Shown here: one piece after another, positions 2,757-12,909 of the stretch
Layout: every line of letters starts with the position of its first letter
Position numbering within the stretch: position 1 is the first letter of the stretch
Assembly (NCBI GenBank): GCA_038736825.1
Contig: JAVYME010000032.1
Location: forward strand, 1 to 12,909
DNA: 12,909 nucleotides
DNA from: Candidatus Iainarchaeum sp.
Lineage (GTDB): Archaea; Iainarchaeota; Iainarchaeia; Iainarchaeales; DTGL01
Direction: 5' to 3'
The notes under the pieces: generated by a model
Database searches by the model: none
The model's input: the letters and a program-made list of their open reading frames with translations, nothing else
What the model was told of the DNA's origin: nothing
Program-made: the position numbers and the translations under genes

Positions 2757-3989
2757 ATGAAAAAAAAGTTTTTGGTTTTAGTTTTTTTGTTTTTTTTCCT
2801 TGACTGTTTTGCCTTCACCATAAATTCAAGGGTTGCTGACACAAGCCAGGAAATGAGGCGCGATCTCACAGAATACGCGGCAGGAGTTGCAAACACCTCT
2901 AGCCCTACAACTGCTTTCATTAAATTGCAGGAAACCGCTTTTTCCGTGAATGTTTCAGGCTTAAAGGACTGGCATGGAGAATACACTGCAGTTGCATTCT
3001 TGTACGGGCCAAGATTGATTTCAAAAGAGGGCACTATTACAGCGGAAAAGCCTTCAATAAAACTTAGGTTTTATTGGAAGAAAGGCAGTGAAATCCATGA
3101 ACTGGATTGCGAGCCAAGGCCTACGTTGAGCCTTAAAACTGTTGGGCAAGAGCAAAGGTGTGATTTGAAGGATGGCGGTTTTGCAAGGGATGGCATAATT
3201 GTTTACAGGATTGACAAAATTAGTGGTCCCGATTATGTTGAAAAGACAAGGATTGGCTGGTGGGTTTTCAAGCTTTACAGTTATTATTCCATAAAATCCG
3301 GTGCTGATCCAGCAGTGACAATAGATTACAGTTTAAAGTTTAGGACTGACACTGGCACTGGTTCTGGTGGCACTTTCACTGAGTGGGTTTCAACAGAAGC
3401 ACAACTGCGAGAAATAAGTTCTGGAGCAACCACTGGAACTGGGCAAAAGCCATTGATTGGCGCTGATGCCTGCAAGCCTTTAATTGGCAAGATTTATTAT
3501 GCTGGTGCGGAAACAGTGGATCCAAAAAGCTTTCATTTAGCGAATTTTGGAGACATTTTTTCGGTTATGGTGAGAGCCGGAGTTGACTGCCAAATAAAGG
3601 ATTTTTCTCTGGGATTGTGGAAAACCAGCACTATAAGCGGGCAGCCTGAAATAAAAATAGGCTTTCTTTTGGATGAAATTACAACCTTAAACCAGCAAGG
3701 CTCTTTTTGGAAAAATGTCATGCTCAACCAGGCAGCATATCCTGCAAAAATGTATTTGGCTGCAAGGCTTGTGAATGCAGAGGGAAGAGAGTTCTTTTCA
3801 GCTCCAGTTGAAATGACTTTTCCGTCTGTAAGTAATGGCACTGGAACCGGCACTGGACCTGGTACTGGGCCTGGAACTGGCACCGGCACTACCACTCCAC
3901 CTGTTCCATTAAAGGGTTGTGATCCCTGCCAGAGTGTTGTGGGTTGCATTGCCTGTCTTGACAGTGCAATGGCTGGAGCTCTAAAATAG
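2757..3989 (+). CDS. secreted protein of unknown family with the same C-terminal 4-Cys tail
   Basis: 410-aa ORF with an ATG start 22 nt after the upstream stop. Signal peptide: MKKKFLVLVFLFFFLDCFAFT. The body is largely beta-strand-like sequence with two Cys pairs. It is followed by a Gly/Thr/Pro linker and the tail GCDPCQSVVGCIACLDSAMAGALK. A hairpin terminator lies downstream. Confidence 0.8.
   Translation: MKKKFLVLVFLFFFLDCFAFTINSRVADTSQEMRRDLTEYAAGVANTSSPTTAFIKLQETAFSVNVSGLKDWHGEYTAVAFLYGPRLISKEGTITAEKPSIKLRFYWKKGSEIHELDCEPRPTLSLKTVGQEQRCDLKDGGFARDGIIVYRIDKISGPDYVEKTRIGWWVFKLYSYYSIKSGADPAVTIDYSLKFRTDTGTGSGGTFTEWVSTEAQLREISSGATTGTGQKPLIGADACKPLIGKIYYAGAETVDPKSFHLANFGDIFSVMVRAGVDCQIKDFSLGLWKTSTISGQPEIKIGFLLDEITTLNQQGSFWKNVMLNQAAYPAKMYLAARLVNAEGREFFSAPVEMTFPSVSNGTGTGTGPGTGPGTGTGTTTPPVPLKGCDPCQSVVGCIACLDSAMAGALK
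3837..3902 (+). other. low-complexity Gly/Thr/Pro linker (GTGTGTGPGTGPGTGTGTTTPP) inside the CDS
   Basis: Direct translation. Synonymous codons are mixed (ggc/gga/ggt/ggg, act/acc), so this is a protein-level linker and not a slippery DNA microsatellite. Confidence 0.8.
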
Positions 3990-4063: not shown

Positions 4064-6301
4064 TTATTTTTTGCTTTTCTTTGAATTGGTTGTTTTTTCT
4101 GCACTGCTTTTTGTTTCGCCTTTGCCTTCAGGCTGCTTGTATGCTTGATAGGTGAGGATTACAATGATTAAGGCTATTAGTCCAAGGAAGAAGAGTATTG
4201 CAAGGTTTGCCAGGCGGTTTCCGCCAAGGGTTGCGAGCCCTGCTTGTTCCTGCTTGTTTTGGTCTGAAATGGTTTCTGTTGGAATCGGTGTTTGGGTTTC
4301 TTCTGGTTTTATTTCTTCCATTGTTGCTTCTTCTTTCGCTAAATCCAGCAAGAGGGTTTTCTTTATCACGCCTTTGTCTGTGTTTATGGTTACCTGCATT
4401 GAAATGTTTTTGTCTTCAATGCTTTTGCCGAGCGAGATTGTGGCAGTAATGGTTTTTTCCTCGTTTACATCCAATTCAAAGGCTTCTGTGTCGAATTTGG
4501 CTGTATAGCCTTCGCCTTTTATTCCGGTTACTGTGAGCTTGCAATTGCCTGTGTTTTTGAGTTTGATTTTTGCTTTTACTGTTTTTTCTGTTTCAAGGAT
4601 TTCCTGCTCTATTTCTGATTCTGCTGAGACATCTATTTGTTCCAATCCAATTGTTTTCACTTTCACTGTAATTTTTGACTTGTCACTGTAATCTCTTGCT
4701 TTTATTTCAAGCAATGCCTCGTATTGTCCTTCTGTTATGTTTACTGGTGGAGAGAGGAATGCATAGAATTCCTTGGTTTCTCCTGCTTTGAGTGTAATTT
4801 CTGATGGCTCTATTTTGAGCCAGTTGATGCCTGTTGCCTTGATTGAAACTGTTTGCTCCATTGTGCCAGTGTTTTTTACTGTGGAGGTAATGGCTTTGCC
4901 TTGCGGGCAAACAAACGCTCCAGCGCTCATTTCAATTGTTTTTTCAAGGCCTTTTTTTGAAACTTCCAGTGAATAGCAGTCGTTGAGGTTGAAAGAGAAT
5001 TCTTTTGCGTACTTGAAATAGTTGGAGTCTATTTCCAGCAAAAAGGATTTTTGGCCTGTTTTTTCGCCTGCAAGGTTGAAGGTTACTGTTATTTTTTTCT
5101 TTTCCGCTGGCCTTAATTCAAAGGTTTCCGGTGTTACTGTGGCTTTTATTCCTGTAATGCTTGCTCTTGCAATTATTGCGTTTTTTGTCGTGTTTTCTGC
5201 TTCAAACTCGTATGAGAGCGTGTCTTCAATGCATGCGCTTTCAATGCCGGAAACTTTTGTTATTGCAAGGTTAAAGCAGTCTTTTATTGTTGCTTTGAAT
5301 TCTTGAACTGTTTCTTTTCCGTATGTTGGCGAGAAGGCTTTTATTGTGAAAGGGTATTCTTTTTCCTCTGCATTGCTTGTGTGAAAGTAAAGCTTTATGT
5401 CTTTTGATTCGTTTGGTTCCAGCACCAGGGCTTTTTCTTTTAATTCAATCCATTCTGGTGCTTCAAGGCTTAATTGAAGGGTGTCTTTTGCCCTTCCAGT
5501 GTTTTTTATTGTTATTGCAATTTGTTCTTCGCGGTCGTTGCAGGCCTGGATTTTTTTCTGTGAATCTGTTCCTATTTGTATTGCCTGCTTGTCTTTTATT
5601 TCAAGCGAGAAATCTGTGGAAGTGGAAAAATCTGTGCCTTTTATTTTTGCTGTGATTTTTCCAGTGTATGTTTTGAGTTCTGCATTGCATGGAGCTTCTA
5701 TTTTGAGCTGGGCGGCTCTTTCAGCGCCCTTGTCTAAAAGGAATTCTTGCGGCAATGCTATTGAAAGCCATTCCGGCGGCAAGCCCTCTATTTTTGCTTG
5801 CACTGTTTCCATTGTAATGCTTTTGTTGGCGATTTTTATTTCAAAGAGCGCTGGCTCGCATTGTCCTGCTTCCCTGTTTTTTGGTTCAACTGAAACTGCA
5901 AGGGTTCTGCATTCTGGCAGTGAGAGAGTAATGTTTTGGGTTTTTTCCCCTTTTTTGGAGGAATATTTTAATCCAATCACGTAAGTGCCGGGTTTTGCAT
6001 AGCAACAAGGAGTGAAGAAAGCGTAAAGTTTTTTTGTTTCGCTTGCTTCAAGAGAGAACACGAGAGGGTTTTTTGCAATTTCTTGGCCGTTAATGTTCAC
6101 CCAGTCAGCGCTTTCACCTATTGCGGTGAGCGAGTACTCTATTGTTTCAGGCCAGTTGTTTTTGAACTCGTATTCTGTTAAAACTGACTCGCAGCATTTT
6201 GCCTGCAATTGGAAAGGCCCTGAAACAAAATCGGCTTTTGCGGTTATTCCAATCATTATGAGCAAGAGCCCTAAAATCGTGTATTTGTTGAATGCGTTCA
6301 T
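4064..6301 (-). CDS. membrane-anchored surface protein with tandem Ig-like (CARDB/NEW3-like) repeats
   Basis: 745-aa ORF with an ATG start and the SD AGGAGGT 7 nt upstream. Signal peptide: MNAFNKYTILGLLLIMIGITAKA. There are about 6-7 repeats of ~95-105 aa, each with a Cys near its start and strand-like patterns such as xIKNTGxxxxTV...GINWLxIEP...LxxGExKEFYAFL. The C-terminal TM helix is LANLAILFFLGLIALIIVILTY, followed by a Lys/Ser-rich tail. Confidence 0.85.
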   Translation of the reverse strand: MNAFNKYTILGLLLIMIGITAKADFVSGPFQLQAKCCESVLTEYEFKNNWPETIEYSLTAIGESADWVNINGQEIAKNPLVFSLEASETKKLYAFFTPCCYAKPGTYVIGLKYSSKKGEKTQNITLSLPECRTLAVSVEPKNREAGQCEPALFEIKIANKSITMETVQAKIEGLPPEWLSIALPQEFLLDKGAERAAQLKIEAPCNAELKTYTGKITAKIKGTDFSTSTDFSLEIKDKQAIQIGTDSQKKIQACNDREEQIAITIKNTGRAKDTLQLSLEAPEWIELKEKALVLEPNESKDIKLYFHTSNAEEKEYPFTIKAFSPTYGKETVQEFKATIKDCFNLAITKVSGIESACIEDTLSYEFEAENTTKNAIIARASITGIKATVTPETFELRPAEKKKITVTFNLAGEKTGQKSFLLEIDSNYFKYAKEFSFNLNDCYSLEVSKKGLEKTIEMSAGAFVCPQGKAITSTVKNTGTMEQTVSIKATGINWLKIEPSEITLKAGETKEFYAFLSPPVNITEGQYEALLEIKARDYSDKSKITVKVKTIGLEQIDVSAESEIEQEILETEKTVKAKIKLKNTGNCKLTVTGIKGEGYTAKFDTEAFELDVNEEKTITATISLGKSIEDKNISMQVTINTDKGVIKKTLLLDLAKEEATMEEIKPEETQTPIPTETISDQNKQEQAGLATLGGNRLANLAILFFLGLIALIIVILTYQAYKQPEGKGETKSSAEKTTNSKKSKK

Positions 6302-6306
6302 TTTTT

Positions 6307-9024
6307 TTACCTCCTGTGCCAGACCGGCTTTGAATGGTTTGTGTCGCTCTCAATGAACCCCTTGAGAGCAATCATTACTATAACTATTATCAGTAAAATA
6401 ATTAACCCTATGCCTAGTGGTTTTCCAAGGGCTGCCAGGGCTGAAAGCGGCCAAAAGCCTTGAGTTGCTTCACTGCTTTTGCCTTCGCTTTCTGCCGGCA
6501 CTGGTTGTTGCGGTGAAACAACAGCTATTGTTATGTTTTTTGAGATTTTTCTGCCATCAAATTCAACTGAAAGCGTTCCATAATAGTTTTCTGGCGCAAT
6601 TTCTTCAGATGCCCACGCATTGAATTCAAATGCTGCCACTTCTTTTGCTTCCAAGTCAACTATTGCGTTTTGAATGCTTGTTCCTTGCGGCATGGACCAA
6701 TTTATTTTTATTCCTGAAATTTTTTCACTGGAACGGTTTGCAAGAGCAACGCTTACCTTTTTGGTTTCTCCCGGGAAAATGATTATTGTTGAAGGATATG
6801 CGGCAATTTCAATTTCTGCTTGCACTTTTTCCCTTGCTTTTACAACACTAAAGTAAATTCTTTTGCTGAAGGTTTCACTGCCTTTCACCAAAACATCAAA
6901 CCAGTAAGTGCCCTCTTTTAAGTCCATTGGAGCGTCCACGTTTATGAACACTTCCCTGCCCTTGCCGGGAGCAAGAGTGAAGCTCTTTTCTGAAAGCGTT
7001 ATTTTTGCCTTTGTGCTATTGCTTATTTCTATGGAATAGCTTTCATTGTAATCGCCCTGGTTTTCAATCAAGAGAGAGAAAACCGCGTTAGAGCACTGTT
7101 CTATTGTAGTGTTCCTGTCCTTTACAGAGAAAACGCTTTTCCTGCGCTTTTCAACATCAAAGCACGCTGTCTTGTATTCGCGGTGCTTTGCAGTCCAAGC
7201 ATAAAGTTTCACGTAATGCTTTCCTGTTGCCTCGTCCAGTCTTGCGCTTGCATTTAACCTTAATGTTTTGGTTTCGTTTGGGTTCAAGTCAACAGAGCCC
7301 TGCACTTCTGTCGGAATGTCCGCTATTGTTTGCAGGTTCACTGTCAGGTTGTTGGAAGTGTTGTTTTTTACTGTAAAGGAAATGTTTTTGTCCTTGCCTT
7401 TTTCAAGGGAAACGCAAGTGCCTGAAAGCGAGAGCGTAAAGGATTGAGTGTCAGGCTCTTCACAGTCCTTTACAGTGAAATAAGCCTTGGTTTGAGCGTA
7501 TTCTTGGTCTGTTCTGGCAGAAACGTTCACATAGTATGAGCCAAGGCTTGTGCCAGGGTACACGTATGTTTTCAATGGCACATATTTTTCAGAGCGCGCG
7601 TCAACTTCAATTGTGCTTTCCTCAAAGTATGCTAGGAATTCTGTGCTTGAAGCCTCAAGCTCCACTTCTTTTATTTCGCTTGAATTGTTTCTTACTAAAA
7701 TGCTGAGAGTGCCTGTTTCGCCCCTGCAAAGCGCTTTGGTTGTGCTTGAAATGTAAAGGCAAGAGCCTGAAGTGCAAGAACCACAAGTTGTACAGGATTC
7801 AACTTTAATGCTTATTGAAGCGCTTTCCTTGTTGCCTCCGCTTTGCGCTTCAAGTTTTGCAGTATAGTTTCCGCTTGGAGCGTCAATTGTTTGTATTGAA
7901 AGCGAAACCCAAGTGCTTTCTCCAGGGTTAAGGCAAACATAGTTTGTTGAGGCTGTTGCATCAATATAGCTGGAATACTCTCTCCCGTAAAGGTTAAGGC
8001 AATAATAATTGCATGAATTGTTTTCAATTTTCACCCTGATGTTTCTGGCATCATTTCTTTGCATGCGGATTGAATTGTATTCTGGGTAAAGGCGAACGCT
8101 GAAACCACAACCACTGGAAGAAGAACCGATTTTTACAGTGTCAAAAGAGAAATCACTGTAATTTTGTCCGTCAAAAGCCCTCACTGTGCACTGCCATTCA
8201 TCGCCGTATTCAGTGAAAGAATTGCTTATGGTTGTTGTATTGTTTTGCGTGGAATAACTTCTAAAAGTGGAACCATTTCTTTTCCAAGTGTAATGGTATT
8301 CTATTGAATCATTGTCTGGGTCTGTGGAATGCGCATAACATACAAGGTCATCTGAGTTCACAGGCGAAGAAGGGGAAATGTAAACGTTTGGCGTGCTTGG
8401 CGGCCTGTTCTGGGTTGAACCAATGCAAAACCCGTTGAGGCAGCCGTTAATGCATGCCTCTTCATTGGACCAAGAGCAGTCCGCGTTCTGGTATGCGCGA
8501 GTGCAGCAATCCTTGCACTTCCAGCCAGGAGTGCATTGCTGTCCTGAAGAAATTGTTATTTCGTAGTATCCATAGTTTGAATAGGTTTTTTGATCGTATG
8601 CTCTTACTTTGCACATCCAGGTTTCTCCAGGGGAAGTGTGGGTTGCCTGCAATACATTGGTTTGAGAGCTTGAAATTCTAGTGGAATAGTATTCGCTGTT
8701 CCTATACCACTTGTATTCGTATTCTATTGGGTCGTTGTCAGGGTCTGTGGAATAAGCGCGGCACACTAAGTCATTGTTTGTTGTTGCCGGGTTTGGGGTG
8801 ATGCTTACCTCTGGAATTGTGGGGGCACTGTTTGGTTTTGGCGTGCAGGTTCCATTAATGCACCCATAAGGACAGTATTCTGTTTGAAGCCAGTTGCAAT
8901 TGCAATCTCTGTATGCGCGATGGAATGCGTCCTTGCAAAACCAGCCCATCATGCAATCAGCAAAAACCGGCATTGAAACTGCCAGCAACAAAAATAAAAC
9001 CATTAAAGCGTTTGTTTTTTTCAT
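6307..9024 (-). CDS. giant membrane-anchored surface protein: two N-terminal Cys-module + DxDxD Ig-like units, then CARDB-like repeats and a TM anchor
   Basis: The ORF track starts this ORF at TTG 9057. I prefer ATG 9024 (MKKTNALMVLFLLLAVSMPVFA, a signal peptide) because GGGGGG lies 9 nt upstream of it. A tandem ~140-aa unit is present twice (8110-8955). It is followed by ~550 aa of Ig-like repeats rich in N-x-S/T sequons and by the C-terminal TM LGIGLIILLIIVIVMIAL. Confidence 0.85.
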   Translation of the reverse strand: MKKTNALMVLFLLLAVSMPVFADCMMGWFCKDAFHRAYRDCNCNWLQTEYCPYGCINGTCTPKPNSAPTIPEVSITPNPATTNNDLVCRAYSTDPDNDPIEYEYKWYRNSEYYSTRISSSQTNVLQATHTSPGETWMCKVRAYDQKTYSNYGYYEITISSGQQCTPGWKCKDCCTRAYQNADCSWSNEEACINGCLNGFCIGSTQNRPPSTPNVYISPSSPVNSDDLVCYAHSTDPDNDSIEYHYTWKRNGSTFRSYSTQNNTTTISNSFTEYGDEWQCTVRAFDGQNYSDFSFDTVKIGSSSSGCGFSVRLYPEYNSIRMQRNDARNIRVKIENNSCNYYCLNLYGREYSSYIDATASTNYVCLNPGESTWVSLSIQTIDAPSGNYTAKLEAQSGGNKESASISIKVESCTTCGSCTSGSCLYISSTTKALCRGETGTLSILVRNNSSEIKEVELEASSTEFLAYFEESTIEVDARSEKYVPLKTYVYPGTSLGSYYVNVSARTDQEYAQTKAYFTVKDCEEPDTQSFTLSLSGTCVSLEKGKDKNISFTVKNNTSNNLTVNLQTIADIPTEVQGSVDLNPNETKTLRLNASARLDEATGKHYVKLYAWTAKHREYKTACFDVEKRRKSVFSVKDRNTTIEQCSNAVFSLLIENQGDYNESYSIEISNSTKAKITLSEKSFTLAPGKGREVFINVDAPMDLKEGTYWFDVLVKGSETFSKRIYFSVVKAREKVQAEIEIAAYPSTIIIFPGETKKVSVALANRSSEKISGIKINWSMPQGTSIQNAIVDLEAKEVAAFEFNAWASEEIAPENYYGTLSVEFDGRKISKNITIAVVSPQQPVPAESEGKSSEATQGFWPLSALAALGKPLGIGLIILLIIVIVMIALKGFIESDTNHSKPVWHRR
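6309..6315 (-). promoter_or_regulatory. Shine-Dalgarno site (AGGAGGT) for the 6301 start
   Basis: On the - strand the sequence reads AGGAGGTaaaaaaaATG. The site overlaps the last codons and stop of the upstream gene, which implies translational coupling. Confidence 0.6.
8110..8955 (-). repeat. protein-level tandem duplication (2 x ~140 aa) at the mature N-terminus
   Basis: Unit 1 is 8536-8955 and unit 2 is 8110-8535. Both contain GW(F/K)CKD...RAY...C...(E/A)(Y/A)C.(Y/N)GC.NG.C, then P.(P/S)TP.V.I.P..P....DLVC.A.STDPDND.IEY.Y.W.RN........T......G(E/D).W.C.VRA(Y/F)D... The copies have diverged at the DNA level. Confidence 0.75.
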
Positions 9025-9033
9025 TTTTTTTCG

Positions 9034-9039
9034 CCCCCC
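9034..9039 (-). promoter_or_regulatory. Shine-Dalgarno-like G6 for the 9024 ATG
   Basis: The - strand reads GGGGGGcgaaaaaaaATG. Confidence 0.5.
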
Positions 9040-9067
9040 TTTTTTTCTAGCTGTCAAGCGCTTTTCC

Positions 9068-9538
9068 TCATTTTATTGTTTTGCATCTCCCTGACGCGGA
9101 ATCGCATCCGTAAACGCAATTGATTTCTTCAACTATTTTTCCAGTGTTAAGGTTGATTTTAACGCTTTTTGTGTTGCGGTGGAAAAAACTGCCCTCGCAT
9201 TTCCATTTAAAATTGCTTCCAGAAAGGCATTTTCCTGAAACCCTGTCACAACCATAAAAGCATTCTGTTTTTTCTGTTTTGCCTGTTAAAAGGTCTTTTT
9301 TCACGCTATACCATTTAGTGGAAAAAATTCCAAGAACCTTGTAATAGCCTTTCTGGCAAGAGAACTGGAATCTTGGAACCATTGAAATGCTGTAATCCCT
9401 TTCATGCCAACAACTTGTGCAAGCAGGGCTTGCTGTGGACTGCCCTCCTTTTCGGTAATCTGAGAGAGAGCCTGCAAAAGCGAAAGGCATTCCTGAAAGA
9501 ATTGAAAAAAACAATATTGCAATAAACAATTTTTTCAT
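9068..9538 (-). CDS. small secreted protein with two W-x-C...C-x-YGC...G-x-C modules
   Basis: 156-aa ORF with an ATG start and GGTG 8 nt upstream. Signal peptide: MKKLFIAILFFSILSGMPFAFA. The two modules are FSCQKGYYKV...TECFYGCDRVSGKC and KWKCEGSFFHRN...INCVYGCDSASGRC. No TM anchor. Confidence 0.8.
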   Translation of the reverse strand: MKKLFIAILFFSILSGMPFAFAGSLSDYRKGGQSTASPACTSCWHERDYSISMVPRFQFSCQKGYYKVLGIFSTKWYSVKKDLLTGKTEKTECFYGCDRVSGKCLSGSNFKWKCEGSFFHRNTKSVKINLNTGKIVEEINCVYGCDSASGRCKTIK

Positions 9539-9546
9539 TTTTTTTT

Positions 9547-9550
9547 CACC
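9547..9550 (-). promoter_or_regulatory. Shine-Dalgarno-like GGTG for the 9538 ATG
   Basis: The - strand reads TAAGGTGaaaaaaaaATG, immediately after the upstream stop. Confidence 0.45.
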
Positions 9551-10798
9551 TTATTTCAGCTTACAATAGTTTCCGCTTGAAAGGCGCGCACAATAATATC
9601 CTTGAGGGCAATCACTGTTGTAAGTGCACTCTTTTCTGCCCGGATTGCATGAACCATTGGTGCAGCCATTGTCACAGTATTCTGCATAACCCCATATTTT
9701 GCTGCCATAAACATCAACTGGCACTTTCCAAGAACCACTGCAAACCCATTTTGAGCTTGGAGAGTAAAGACTGCCATAATTGCTTGAAACCACTGGCGGC
9801 ACCACTGTGGGTTTTGTGGTTGCACGGTATTGTGAAATTGTTGTTGGCTTGTGCTGGCTTGCTGGAGTTGATTCAGGTTGAATGGTTTTTGCAGGGGTTG
9901 TTTTGACTTCAAAGCCTGTGGATTTGCCAACGCATTGCCCGTTTTTGCAGGTTTGACAGCTTCCACAAGTCTGGTACAAAAAACTGGCTTCAGAGCAATC
10001 CTTGTAAGTGAATTTAATGAATACTTTGCCTGGCTGTGCTGGATCGCAAAATGTTTCGCTTTTTGGAGTGCAGGTTTTCACTGGCGGTTTTGGCGCTGGA
10101 TTGCAGTTTCCACTAGCGCATCCGTATTGGCAGTATTCTTTTTGTATTATGTTTCCGCATGACAGGTCTATTTTTATTCTGTAGTTTCCTTGGCATTGCC
10201 ATTGGTATTGTGGTTGTGGTTTTGGCTTGCATTGTGTTGTGTTTGGGTCGCATCCGTATTGGCAGTATTCTTTTTGTATTATGTTTCCGCATGACAGGTC
10301 TATTTTTATTCTGTAGTTTCCTTGGCATTGCCATTGGTATTGTGGGGCTGGCGCTGGATTGCATTTTCCTGTTGCTTGATTGCAACCATAAGCGCAGTTT
10401 TCCGGGAATGCGTGTTCATAGCCCCATTTGAAAGAGGCTGGAAGTTGGGCTTTTTCTATTCTATAGCTTGTGTTTCCCCTGCACTCGTAAGAGGTTTTCC
10501 AGTTTATGCTTTCAAAACGGCCATTGTAACAGTAAACATAGTCTGTTTGCGGCTTGTATTGGGCAATGGATGTGTTTTTTGTGCAATTGCTGAAATAGTC
10601 TATTTTGTACAGGGTTCTGCATTCGTCAGTCCAATTGGTGGTGCAGTCTCCGCACTTGTATTCTGTTTTCACCAGGTATGGAGTGTAGCAGGAGGGGTTG
10701 CCTGTGCAAGTGCAGTTTGGAATTGTTTGAAGTCCAGCGGCTGCCAAGGGTAAAAGCAAAAGGAATGCTATTGCAATTATTGTTTTTGTTTTAACCAT
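9551..10798 (-). CDS. secreted Cys-rich modular protein (about 9% Cys), paralog of 11484-12359
   Basis: The ORF track start is GTG 10807. I prefer ATG 10798 (MVKTKTIIAIAFLLLLPLAAAG, a signal peptide), which has AGGAG 10 nt upstream and overlaps the upstream stop (ATGgtTAA). Architecture in order: a YLVKTEYKCGDC...CAYGCNQATGKC domain; two identical QYQWQCQGNYRIKIDLSCGNIIQKEYCQYGC modules; a CGSCQTCKNGQC cassette; a Thr/Pro linker; then a final WVCSGSW...EYCDNGCTNGSC module. Confidence 0.8.
   Translation of the reverse strand: MVKTKTIIAIAFLLLLPLAAAGLQTIPNCTCTGNPSCYTPYLVKTEYKCGDCTTNWTDECRTLYKIDYFSNCTKNTSIAQYKPQTDYVYCYNGRFESINWKTSYECRGNTSYRIEKAQLPASFKWGYEHAFPENCAYGCNQATGKCNPAPAPQYQWQCQGNYRIKIDLSCGNIIQKEYCQYGCDPNTTQCKPKPQPQYQWQCQGNYRIKIDLSCGNIIQKEYCQYGCASGNCNPAPKPPVKTCTPKSETFCDPAQPGKVFIKFTYKDCSEASFLYQTCGSCQTCKNGQCVGKSTGFEVKTTPAKTIQPESTPASQHKPTTISQYRATTKPTVVPPVVSSNYGSLYSPSSKWVCSGSWKVPVDVYGSKIWGYAEYCDNGCTNGSCNPGRKECTYNSDCPQGYYCARLSSGNYCKLK
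10117..10345 (-). repeat. perfect 97-bp direct repeat (10117-10213 and 10249-10345), period 132 bp, in frame inside the CDS
   Basis: A base-by-base comparison shows the two 97-bp stretches are identical. They are separated by a divergent 35-bp linker. The 132-bp period equals 44 codons. The flanks share GGCGCTGGATTGCA (starting near 10091 and near 10350). Confidence 0.95.
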
Positions 10799-11363
10799 AA
10801 AATTCACGCTCCTGCCTGCTTTTGATTGTTATTATTTTTGCGATTATGGCGATTGATAGCAGAATTATTATTGCGATGAGGAATATTAGTGTTAAGCCTT
10901 CAATGCCGCCCAGTGCTGCCAGTGGTGTTACACTGTTTTTTTGTTCTTCTTTTTGGGTTTCATTTGGCTGTGTTTCCTGTATTGGAAAGTATTTTGCGGA
11001 GTGCACTCTGATTTCTTTCAGCACTGTTGTTTCTCCAAGTGAAACCATTAGGCTGGAATTGTAAATTGTGCCTTCTGTTTCGTCAGATGGAAAGATTGTG
11101 AGGTAAAAGGTTGCGCTTTCCATTGGCTTGATTTTTTCTGGAATGCTGGAGATTGTGTAGTGCAAGCCGGCTGGGCCAATGAAAAGGGCTTTTAGTTCTT
11201 TTTCTTGTAGGGAGGTGTTTTGGACTGTTACCGGCATTGTCATTTCCCTTACGAGGTATACATCGTTCCAAGTTTTTATGTGGCTTTCATCGAAAGCGCT
11301 TGCACTGGAAAAAAGCAAGAGCAGTATTCCTGTTGCAAGCGCAATGCACAAATTTTTTTTCAA
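10791..11363 (-). CDS. small membrane-anchored protein with one Ig-like domain
   Basis: The N-terminal region has no ATG. Candidate TTG starts are at 11369 (ORF track) and 11363. GGGGG (complement of 11371-11375) lies 7 nt from the 11363 TTG and only 1 nt from the 11369 TTG, so I prefer 11363 ((M)KKNLCIALATGILLLLFSSASA, a signal peptide). The protein has one ~110-aa beta-rich domain, a Glu/Gln-rich spacer, PLAALGG, and the TM LTLIFLIAIIILLSIAIIAKIITI. Confidence 0.7.
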   Translation of the reverse strand: MKKNLCIALATGILLLLFSSASAFDESHIKTWNDVYLVREMTMPVTVQNTSLQEKELKALFIGPAGLHYTISSIPEKIKPMESATFYLTIFPSDETEGTIYNSSLMVSLGETTVLKEIRVHSAKYFPIQETQPNETQKEEQKNSVTPLAALGGIEGLTLIFLIAIIILLSIAIIAKIITIKSRQEREFYG

Positions 11364-11370
11364 AACCAAG

Positions 11371-11375
11371 CCCCC
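11371..11375 (-). promoter_or_regulatory. Shine-Dalgarno-like G5 for the 11363 TTG
   Basis: The - strand reads GGGGGcttggttTTGaaaaaaaat. Confidence 0.45.
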
Positions 11376-11421
11376 TTTACATTAACTTATTAACTTTGAT
11401 ACATTAATTTATGTCGCCCCT

Positions 11422-11438
11422 TATATAAAAACCTTTCT
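11422..11438 (-). promoter_or_regulatory. archaeal BRE/TATA promoter (AGAAAGG-TTTTTATATA) for 11363 and downstream genes
   Basis: The - strand reads aGAAAGGTTTTTATATA, about 55-60 nt upstream of the start codon. A 14-mer is identical to the promoter at 12424-12437. A conserved ATTAATG lies ~22-26 nt downstream of the TATA centre, a plausible initiator. Confidence 0.6.
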
Positions 11439-11483
11439 ATTTTTCCTTTTTTTCAAAATTTCGTTTTTTTGGTTGTTGCTGTT

Positions 11484-12359
11484 TTAATTGCATTGCCCTG
11501 TTGCCCTATTGCAGCCATTATAGCAGAAAGTCTGCTTTACAACAGTGCTCTTGTCCTGCAGTGTTTTAACGCTGTAATTGCCAATGCAACTGTAAAAATA
11601 TTGCTGGTATGCTGTGGTTGTTGTCGGTGTTTCAGGTGCTCTGTATGCTTGAATTCCAGCTGGCTCCCTGTAAACTGGCTGTGGCGTGTATTCTGGGGTT
11701 TTTTCCTGCATGCACCTGAATCCAACTGGATCGCAAACATAGCCACTGCCACAGGTTTCTATTGTTATAACGCAGCCATCCGAATATGCCTTTACAACCC
11801 TGTTGCCCCTGCACTCCAGCTTGTATTCAGGGTTTGCTGGCCTTGTCCATGCTGGATTGCATTTTCCAGTGCTCCAATTGCAGCTGTACTGGCAATAGTC
11901 AATGCTTGTGGTTTGCATCATTGTCCAACCCCAAGGGGAAAAGAATTTTCTGTATGCAACTGAATAGCCATTGTTTTTGCATTCATTCCATGTTATCCAG
12001 GCAAAGCTTTCAAAGTGACCGTTTATGCAGTAAAAGTATCCTGAAATTTTTTCTGTGGTTGTTTTTGATGTGCCGTCACTGTAATAGCTGGTTGTGTAAA
12101 GGGTTTGGCATTCAGGGGTTAATCCCCTAGAGCAGTCACCGCATTTTTTTTCTGTCCTTACAATGTAAGGGCTTCCATAAGAGTATGGCTGGGTGTAACC
12201 ATAATATGAAGTGGTGGTTTGCGGTCTGTAGGATTGAACAGAGGTTGTTTGAGTTGGAGTTGCCCTGTATGCTGTAGTTGTACCGGATAATGCGAATGCT
12301 GCCGGTAATGCCAAAATGAAAATTAATCCAATTATTGAAAGAATTTTTTTTCCAGTCAT
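11484..12359 (-). CDS. secreted Cys-rich modular protein, paralog of 9551-10798
   Basis: 291-aa ORF with an ATG start and GGGGGG 8 nt upstream. Signal peptide: MTGKKILSIIGLIFILALPAAFA. YIVRTEKKCGDC...ECQTLY...YCINGHFES..W....EC...CQYSCNWSTGKCNPA aligns with the N-terminal domain of 9551-10798. Two further modules follow, the last being YSCIGNYSVKT...FCYNGCNRATGQC. There are Thr/Tyr/Pro linkers and no TM anchor. Confidence 0.8.
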   Translation of the reverse strand: MTGKKILSIIGLIFILALPAAFALSGTTTAYRATPTQTTSVQSYRPQTTTSYYGYTQPYSYGSPYIVRTEKKCGDCSRGLTPECQTLYTTSYYSDGTSKTTTEKISGYFYCINGHFESFAWITWNECKNNGYSVAYRKFFSPWGWTMMQTTSIDYCQYSCNWSTGKCNPAWTRPANPEYKLECRGNRVVKAYSDGCVITIETCGSGYVCDPVGFRCMQEKTPEYTPQPVYREPAGIQAYRAPETPTTTTAYQQYFYSCIGNYSVKTLQDKSTVVKQTFCYNGCNRATGQCN

Positions 12360-12367
12360 AAAAATAA

Positions 12368-12373
12368 CCCCCC
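12368..12373 (-). promoter_or_regulatory. Shine-Dalgarno-like G6 for the 12359 ATG
   Basis: The - strand reads GGGGGGttattttaATG. Confidence 0.5.
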
Positions 12374-12422
12374 AAAGAAGTAACTATTTAACTGTTGTTC
12401 ATTAATAATTATTCTCCTCTTT

Positions 12423-12438
12423 CTATAAAAACCTTTCG
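12423..12438 (-). promoter_or_regulatory. archaeal BRE/TATA promoter (CGAAAGG-TTTTTATAG) for the minus-strand surface operon
   Basis: The - strand reads CGAAAGGTTTTTATAG, 64 nt upstream of ATG 12359. It shares the same 14-mer as 11424-11437. ATTAATG lies at 12400-12406 (complement). Confidence 0.6.
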
Positions 12439-12552: not shown

Positions 12553-12909
12553 TTAACCTTTTTCAAGTGCTTTCTTGAGAAGGTCTGACTTTGTGATTAT
12601 GCCGGCAATTTTTCCACGCTCTGCCACAAGAACCGCCTGTTCGTGATTCAAAATTCCGGCAAGAACAGGGAACACTGTATGGCTGTTCACAACAGGCAAA
12701 GGCTCACCCATTATATCTGAAGCCTTTAAGAGATTGAACTGGCTGCCCTTTTCCCTAATCGCGGAAAGAGCCCCGCTTTCGGTTATTATGCCGACACACT
12801 GTCCCCTTTTTACCACTGGAATCTGCGAAAAACCGTTTTTTTCCATTATCTCAACAGCCTTTCTGGCGCTCTCATTAAAGCTTATTGATTTGACTTTCCT
12901 GCTCATGAT
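12553..12909 (-). CDS. CBS-domain pair (Bateman module) protein, 5' end probably outside the window
   Basis: There are two CBS motifs: ...VKSISFNESARKAVEIMEKNGFSQIPVVKRGQCVGIITESGALSAI and ASDIMGEPLPVVNSHTVFPVLAGILNHEQAVLVAERGKIAGIITKSDLLKKA. The frame stays open to the window edge. The ATG at 12906 sits in the position of the usual (D)IM-x-x-x-V motif of CBS1, so the true start is likely upstream. Confidence 0.85.
   Translation of the reverse strand: MMSRKVKSISFNESARKAVEIMEKNGFSQIPVVKRGQCVGIITESGALSAIREKGSQFNLLKASDIMGEPLPVVNSHTVFPVLAGILNHEQAVLVAERGKIAGIITKSDLLKKALEKG

Follow-up and report, generated by a model that had tools for sequence, protein, structure and literature searches.

A recurrent cysteine module, mostly archaeal in distribution, in a conserved and probably envelope-related gene row of Candidatus Iainarchaeum

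Among described systems, those closest to the subject of this study are the eukaryotic EGF, CCP and TSR repeats, all-beta modules of 35-45 residues braced by disulfides that are strung into tandem arrays and act as spacers or interaction units in both secreted and membrane-anchored proteins, and the archaeal surface-layer (S-layer) and other cell-surface glycoproteins with a C-terminal transmembrane (TM) anchor. EGF domains are abundant in the PDB, and the pacifastin inhibitors are built as three-stranded antiparallel sheets with three disulfides. To our knowledge, neither cysteine-rich modules at the tip of an S-layer protein nor soluble cysteine-rich partners of such a protein are a described feature of S-layers. 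Here we consider contig JAVYME010000032.1 (assembly GCA_038736825.1), analyzed over its entire length of 12,909 bp (‘the window’), from a metagenome-assembled genome (MAG) named ‘Candidatus Diapherotrites archaeon’; related contigs carry the label Candidatus Iainarchaeum, phylum Iainarchaeota. A tight row of minus-strand genes, D, C, B, A, E and F (12359 down to 4064), contains a recurrent cysteine module in four of its members, A, B, D and E; C and F are their module-free neighbors, and G, H and I are proteins encoded on the plus strand. Unless one of these last three is concerned, coordinates below are on the minus strand; L-numbers denote related contigs or loci of other genomes, and P-numbers other proteins carrying the module. 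With rather more confidence than doubt, we lean towards the view that the module is an uncatalogued, mostly archaeal, disulfide-stabilized extracellular stalk or binding unit, housed here in a conserved cell-envelope locus in which E and F would be S-layer-like proteins and B, A and D would be associated with the envelope, plausibly at the tip of E.

Alignment of the 11 copies of the module, 35-48 residues in length, from A, B, D and the N-terminal tip of E shows four invariant cysteines and one nearly invariant glycine, with the core pattern C...C-x-[YN]-G-C-x2-5-G-x-C. The same four cysteines are invariant across 150 modules from many proteins, so the conservation in homologs that the preliminary description of this DNA had presupposed is borne out. 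Two of the copies are in A (156 residues, 9068..9538): module 1 (residues 58-104, 9227..9367), which has a long first hairpin and is matched by an outside profile, described below, only over its C-terminal half, and module 2 (residues 111-153, 9080..9208), which is matched by this profile as well as by one derived from the window. In B, an N-terminal domain (residues 41-150, 10358..10687) consists of module 1 (106-150) and, ahead of it, an all-beta unit of ~60 residues, and the profiles place module 2 at residues 158-194 (10226..10336), module 3 at 202-236 (10100..10204) and module 4 at 353-388 (9644..9751). Modules 2 and 3 of B constitute a 132-nt tandem duplication (1.9 copies, 94% identical, 10117-10365), indicating a recent change in the number of module copies. 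The N-terminal domain of D (residues 63-168, 11856..12173), which aligns with the N-terminal domains of the B family, includes a long-loop module 1 (124-168; 6.6e-15 with the window-derived profile) and is followed by module 2 (residues 180-217, KLECRGN...CDPVGFRC, 11709..11822), weak against the outside profile, and by module 3 at the C-terminal end (residues 255-291, 11487..11597; outside-profile domain E-value 2.9e-4). The two copies in E are canonical in form with additional cysteines, one in module 1 (residues 35-72, 8842..8955; outside-profile domain E-value 1.6e-14) and two in module 2 (residues 175-212, 8422..8535; 9.4e-15). These three extra cysteines, found in the sequences ‘DCNC’ of module 1 and ‘DCC’ of module 2, are present in the L032 ortholog (11665-14382) and absent from that of L001.

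Recurrence of the module in four genes had been proposed from the sequence alone, and all the peptides and coordinates quoted for it were recovered, including 8845-8946 and 8425-8526 within E. The larger N-terminal domain said to be common to B and D was found likewise: the two proteins are paralogs across this domain and the modules (BLASTP 1e-32, 33% identity). The outside profile was built from 116 modules of unrelated metagenome proteins, without window or B-family sequences, and was run against the 156 six-frame segments of the window. It found exactly the same four genes (E-values of 6.7e-25 for E, 3.4e-13 for B, 3.1e-6 for A and 2.9e-4 for D), the next segment having an E-value of 0.5, and in the same scan the cysteine-rich plus-strand proteins G, H and I were unmatched; chance, low complexity and plain richness in cysteine are thus ruled out as the source of the resemblance. 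The members of the family within the window accordingly combine the four invariant cysteines and a retained spacing with detection by a profile that had not seen them, with the qualification that module 1 of A, module 1 of B and modules 1 and 2 of D are weak against the outside profile and are recognized mainly through that of the B family.

Beyond the window, the canonical form of the module has six cysteines, C0-x2-G-W-x-C1-x6-8-[YF]-x3-4-C2-x-W-x5-C3-x-x-G-C4-x-N-G-x-C5, and this is exactly the form carried by E. A, B and D carry divergent derivatives of it with four to five cysteines, in which C0, and mostly also C2, has been lost. Among ~185 distinct modules, C0 and the middle cysteine C2 co-occur strongly (133/10/6/36, Fisher p 5e-23); moreover, in 9 of the 10 apparent ‘C0-only’ modules the cysteine belongs to the end of the preceding module of a tandem array, the tenth (P0054) being ambiguous. 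Such joint gain and loss is what one would expect if an optional disulfide were added to a four-cysteine core, and the signal peptides of the carriers agree with disulfide bonding. The module would most likely be held, then, by two obligatory disulfides formed among C1, C3, C4 and C5, and in the canonical form by an optional third between C0 and C2.

AlphaFold2 prediction for module 2 of E with the 150-module alignment gave a very confident model (predicted local distance difference test, pLDDT, of 95.9) consisting of three antiparallel strands (residues 5-10, 13-17 and 23-28) followed by a mini-hairpin made from the C-x-x-G-C-x-x-G-x-C tail, and the N-terminal domain of B, modeled together with its module 1, was predicted with similar confidence (pLDDT 93.2) as the all-beta unit followed by a long-loop module. 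Neither sequence nor fold led to a named domain, in agreement with what had been stated at the outset. Neither among the window proteins nor among 20 further carriers did a Pfam-A or NCBIfam model account for the module; profile searches of PDB sequences with the 11 and with the 150 modules returned no match even at E<=10; Foldseek comparisons of both models with PDB, and of the module with BFVD, gave nothing below E = 0.45, with kinesin, CCP, pacifastin and phage-baseplate entries at noise level, and for the N-terminal domain of B no fold match in PDB. No specific description of a DPANN cysteine-rich surface repeat of this kind was found in the literature. Against the sequence and structure libraries searched, the module is therefore an uncatalogued family. 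A few candidate assignments were considered and set aside: Toxin_20 on P0017 reaches 27 bits against a cutoff of 25, yet no single stretch passes, the best covering 11 residues; and TIGR04201 (Myxo_Cys_RPT) and Dumpy_DPY, which are also short extracellular cysteine repeats, match only weakly (13-15 bits against cutoffs of 25-27) and outside the module, their targets being protein I and, in B, the C-terminal knot ‘C-T-Y-N-S-D-C-P-x-G-Y-Y-C’.

The likeness to EGF that the preliminary description had loosely drawn is superficial, residing in the C-x-x-G-C-x-x-G-x-C ending, and it did not withstand comparison at either level. For A, B, D, E and 10 canonical carriers, no EGF-family Pfam model matched any module at E<=1 or 0.1; the EGF fold, with its two small two-stranded sheets and C1-C3, C2-C4 and C5-C6 pairing, differs from the three-stranded sheet and mini-hairpin of the model, and no EGF domain appears among the Foldseek PDB matches at E<=10. 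What the module does share with the EGF, CCP and TSR repeats is size, all-beta structure, tandem arrangement and, if the predicted disulfides form, the manner of bracing; it departs from them in topology, in the number of cysteines (four plus two optional) and in its archaeal distribution.

This distribution is much wider than a peculiarity of one operon, as which the module had first been presented. When 1.84 billion cluster representatives were searched with a profile, 61 proteins came out at E<=1e-3, 17 of them at E<=1e-10, and a strict, hand-made degenerate DNA pattern for the W-K-C subtype, run over GTDB species genomes with an estimated ~0.05 chance matches, found 28 loci, almost all archaeal, as well as matching module 2 of E itself at 8425-8523. 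The loci are from Iainarchaeum (6), Aenigmatarchaeota (5), Woesearchaeota (2), Nanoarchaeota, Nanohalarchaeota and Altiarchaeales (1 each), MAGs labeled Methanosarcinales (4), unclassified archaea (several), Parcubacteria (1) and Clostridiales (1); the same pattern had no match in viral contigs. The carriers, which are mostly from DPANN archaea, start with a signal peptide or a lipoprotein-like N-terminus. Some bear arrays of 4-12 modules (P0014, P0017, P0022, P0026 and L017, the last with up to 12), in others the module is N-terminal in a C-terminally anchored protein (P0014, P0022, P0023, P0030, P0031), and often it is fused to a hydrolase, being located upstream of SNase+LTD nucleases, of an SLT_3 lysozyme-like domain or of a lipase/alpha-beta-hydrolase; DUF1554, EPTP+PPC and CARDB also co-occur with it. 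With partners so promiscuous, the module looks like a spacer or binding unit of general purpose rather than a dedicated adhesin.

Nearly identical module+SNase+LTD proteins occur in L010, L021 and L030 (also in L004 and L014), that is, in MAGs labeled Methanosarcinales, ‘uncultured archaeon’ and Nanohalarchaeota. Either horizontal transfer or the binning of DPANN contigs with a host genome might account for this, and it calls for caution with regard to the Methanosarcinales part of the distribution.

We turn to the genes that house the module. By hydropathy, A, B and D have an N-terminal signal-like segment only, and C, E and F have in addition a C-terminal TM helix; the signal peptides claimed earlier for the module proteins, and the arrangement of soluble paralogs next to an anchored protein displaying the module at its membrane-distal end, are both reproduced by this topology. 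E (6307..9057) has 916 residues if translated from a TTG codon and 905 from the ATG at 9024, and proceeds from the signal peptide through a module, an Ig-like domain, a second module, a second Ig-like domain and approximately five more Ig-like domains to the TM anchor (residues 870-906, 6340..6450) and an invariant cytoplasmic tail; it contains 24 N-x-S/T sequons. F (4064..6301, 745 residues), the conserved last gene of the row, has a signal peptide, Ig-like repeats of the FixG_C, Cep192/HYDIN and choice-of-anchor-like types, a C-terminal TM anchor and no module. The Pfam Ig-like matches in E and F together are FixG_C, fn3_5, NPCBM_assoc and the Cep192/HYDIN type. Thus the two adjacent genes resemble archaeal S-layer and cell-surface glycoproteins in signal peptide, stacked beta-sandwich domains, numerous sequons, and TM helix with a short tail; they differ in that their profile matches are all sub-threshold. 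None of the curated S-layer models exceeds its cutoff on E or F (NF033506, 23.7 bits against 110; choice_anch_T, 27.6 and 44.8 bits against 70), and phmmer found no PDB sequence relative of E.

Gene D (11484..12359) encodes a secreted protein of 291 residues without an anchor, the paralog of B. C (10791..11369, 192 residues), a signal-peptide protein with one non-Cys domain and a TM anchor at its C-terminus, is the conserved opening gene of a C-B-A-E-F unit, with orthologs in L001 (68% identity), L002 and L032. B (9551..10807) has 418 residues from a GTG start, or 415 from the ATG at 10798 in the NCBI annotation, and contains 37 cysteines. Spacing is close throughout: 114 nt between D and C, an overlap of C with B, 12 nt between B and A, 10 or 43 nt between A and E depending on the start of E, and 5 nt between E and F.

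The order of regulator, C-like, B-like, zero to two A-like, E-like and F-like genes is kept in the window, L001/L008, L002/L003, L029 and L032, that is, in at least five Iainarchaeia genomes, and convergent G/H-like genes come after F wherever a contig covers the downstream flank (L001, L002/L003, L032). In L002/L003 and L032, the locus adjoins genes for SAM synthetase, tRNA editing, PHP, TraB and CTP synthase. The number of A-like genes varies, with one or two in L001 and L029 and none in L002 and L032, and D is unique to the window among the genomes examined, since L001, L002 and L032 lack a D-like gene in the interval from the regulator to the C-like gene; each E ortholog (L001, L002, L029, L032) keeps exactly two tip modules. 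The regulator, of the HTH_3+CBS type, is full-length upstream of the locus in L001, L002 and L032; in the window only its CBS half is seen (12553..12906, Pfam CBS 1.8e-19), interrupted by the end of the contig.

A leader with elements resembling the archaeal B recognition element and TATA box (BRE/TATA), of consensus GAAAGGTTTTTATA[GAT]A, then ATTAATG, tandem AGTTAA[AT]-AGTTAA repeats and a G-run, precedes C in three genomes (the window; L001, 780-885; L002, 9350-9452). In the window it extends over 11370..11437 (GAAAGGTTTTTATATA, AGTTAAT repeats, G-run), and alignment reveals a second copy upstream of D at 12360..12437 (GAAAGGTTTTTATAGA, AGTTAA repeats, G-run). With the leader duplicated in this way, the row, first taken for one operon, is probably two co-regulated units, and D would be a duplicated gene placed under the same control upstream of C-B-A-E-F. 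The adjacent HTH-CBS regulator could have its operator in the AGTTAA repeats.

Let us consider how these parts might act together. In archaea, and mainly in DPANN lineages, the module would be employed as a generic ‘bead’, strung into tandem arrays, placed farthest from the membrane in surface proteins with a C-terminal anchor, or inserted between a membrane or lipid anchor and a secreted hydrolase. By analogy with eukaryotic EGF-like or CCP repeats, this suggests a role as a rigid spacer, as a binding or tethering unit, or as both. At the present locus, E and F would be glycoprotein-like, Ig-repeat envelope proteins of the S-layer kind held by their C-terminal anchors. B, A and D, anchor-less and composed almost wholly of divergent modules, might be retained on the cell because their modules bind the tip of E or some other component of the envelope, of which the three proteins would make up an outer layer. 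What we infer from these features taken together is that disulfides form, that B, A and D are associated with the envelope, and that the module acts as a stalk or binding unit.

Several considerations weigh against this proposal. The formation of an S-layer by E and F and the retention of B, A and D on the cell are deduced from sequence; a stalk and a binding role cannot be separated with the present data; and the outside profile was drawn from matches to a search seeded with the window, and is hence not fully independent. If the habitat is reducing, the disulfides may not form. Furthermore, were the disulfides purely structural, there would be no explanation for the B-type modules (‘[DE]xxCGN[IV]’), which retain the middle cysteine without C0 and have five cysteines, an odd count: modules 2 and 3 of B (10100-10336), module 2 of D (11709-11822) and those of P0002, P0003, P0006, P0007, P0010 and P0025. 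A free thiol or an intermolecular disulfide is a possible fate of the unpaired cysteine; since whole-protein cysteine parity is inconsistent among B homologs (23-47 cysteines, odd and even), no free thiol should be deduced from it.

The finding bears on DPANN archaea, in which a very large share of the secreted and surface proteins is unannotated and the surface is the site of attachment, uptake and envelope integrity. The module is compact, confidently foldable, mostly archaeal and missed by current domain libraries, and, with a profile of it, ‘hypothetical’ surface proteins and extracellular hydrolases would receive an annotation by the hundred. The C-B-A-E-F locus offers a concrete candidate for the uncharacterized cell envelope of Iainarchaeia (Diapherotrites), and the common promoter element together with the neighboring regulator makes it experimentally tractable. 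This is a discovery at the level of a domain, not of a new kind of system, and the family is broader, and its role more ordinary, than had first been proposed.

The role first proposed was host recognition or adhesion by an episymbiotic DPANN cell, in which the tip of E would bind the host and the soluble proteins A, B and D would diversify to track host variation. The lineage itself and the position of the modules at the membrane-distal tip of E speak for such a scenario, as do the variable number of A-like genes, the extra gene D, the range from two to five or more modules per B-like protein and the 132-nt duplication in B. Comparison of the window genes with their L001 orthologs by the NG86 method adds that nonsynonymous divergence (dN) is 0.35-0.44 for A and B, against 0.18-0.28 for C, E, F and H (0.18-0.25 for C, E and F), that is, A and B have ~1.5-2 times the dN of C, E and F. 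Synonymous divergence (dS) is saturated, however (1.6-2.6, and undefined for A), so that only the ranks of dN can be used; the ratio of the two (omega) is ~0.1-0.17, far below 1, with no sign of positive selection, and the tip modules, which the scenario would have in contact with the host, are no less conserved than the remainder of E (dN 0.09-0.17). Judged by these rates, the locus is under purifying selection. Of the diversifying paralogs that had been postulated, there stand the higher dN of A and B and the variable module number, while the low omega and the conserved tip of E speak to the contrary, leaving the notion weakly supported. The episymbiotic host was an assumption: no host is known, and an independent lifestyle has been discussed as a possibility for Candidatus Iainarchaeum andersonii (PMC6349945). 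Conserved gene order in housekeeping surroundings, across at least five genomes, also does not favor adhesion to a varying host, nor does the joining of the module elsewhere in archaea to nucleases, a lysozyme-like domain and a lipase, which is not adhesin-specific. We consider this explanation unlikely, if still worth keeping in mind.

To the same limited degree one may entertain that the module binds carbohydrate or another polymer, with a function like that of CBM1 or hevein, and directs envelope proteins and secreted hydrolases to S-layer glycans, extracellular polymeric substances or cell-wall polymers. It is a small, presumably disulfide-braced beta unit with conserved aromatic residues (a tryptophan in strand 1, a tyrosine in strand 2, a tryptophan after C2 and a tyrosine before C3), its attachment N-terminal to SNase+LTD, SLT_3 and lipase domains is typical of carbohydrate-binding modules, and tandem copies would increase avidity. 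In a domain of 40 residues, though, these aromatics may simply form the core, and the nuclease and lipase partners do not have glycan substrates. CBM1 and hevein/CBM18 were without a Pfam match, and no carbohydrate-binding module was among the Foldseek matches.

A more elaborate arrangement, to which we give somewhat less credence again, is that the locus builds a multi-component structure on the outer surface, with the anchor-less B, A and D mounted on the two tip modules of E, perhaps covalently through the unpaired cysteine of the B-type modules; it would then amount to an envelope appendage of a kind not seen before or to an apparatus for cell-cell recognition, controlled by the HTH-CBS regulator.

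That the cysteines bind metal, as Zn sites or Fe-S type clusters, and that the proteins are extracellular metal-binding or redox-active components, seems quite improbable to us. Four invariant cysteines per module would suit it, as would the CxxC-x5-CxxC with which the neighboring G and H end and the provenance of the organisms from what we presume to be anoxic habitats, where disulfides are less expected; but the spacing C...C-x3-C-x4-7-C is not that of a known Zn knuckle or ferredoxin, the optional cysteines come and go together, the behavior expected of disulfide partners, AlphaFold2 predicts a confident compact beta fold with no ligand, and all the carriers are secreted. Least likely of all is a string of pacifastin- or Kazal-type protease-inhibitor domains shielding the envelope or inhibiting foreign proteases, as the tandem build recalls multi-headed inhibitors and the pacifastins 2vu8_I and 1gl1_I (PMP-C, ~35 residues) are the sole compact small-domain Foldseek neighbors of the module (TM-score 0.38-0.43, 32 aligned columns), but these matches are not significant (E = 7.8, probability 0.06), Pacifastin_I and Kazal stay below the Pfam threshold, the cysteine spacing is different, no conserved reactive-site loop is evident, and fusions to nuclease and lipase would be unexpected of an inhibitor.

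Lastly, we note a few features of the proteins that surround the modules. The Ig/PKD-like domains of E that alternate with its tip modules (residues 73-174, 8536-8841; and residues 213-310, ~8130-8421) both have the motif ‘DL.C.A.S.DPDND.IEY.Y.W.RN’ and only faint Pfam matches (Sde0182_C, K319L-like_PKD); they may represent another poorly catalogued domain. At the other end of E, the cytoplasmic tail ‘...KPVWHRR’ (last eight codons, 6310-6333) is invariant in five genomes in which the ectodomain is only ~65-75% identical, which suggests a conserved cytoplasmic contact.

On the plus strand, I (31-549) and G (551-2734) bear another short cysteine repeat, C-x-x-C-P-x-G-x-x-C-x4-5-C, with a weak TIGR04201-like match on I; unmatched as it is by the module profile, it brings to at least two the number of unrelated cysteine-rich repeat types at the locus. 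Finally, the convergent secreted proteins G and H terminate in ‘LAGC[DN]PC.S..GC[LI]AC[IL]D....’ (ends at 2660-2731 and 3918-3986, respectively), a CxxC-x5-CxxC arrangement at the very C-terminal end, not accompanied by a TM helix, that is the same in the orthologs of L001, L002, L003, L029 and L032 and may be a sorting, anchoring or metal-binding motif.

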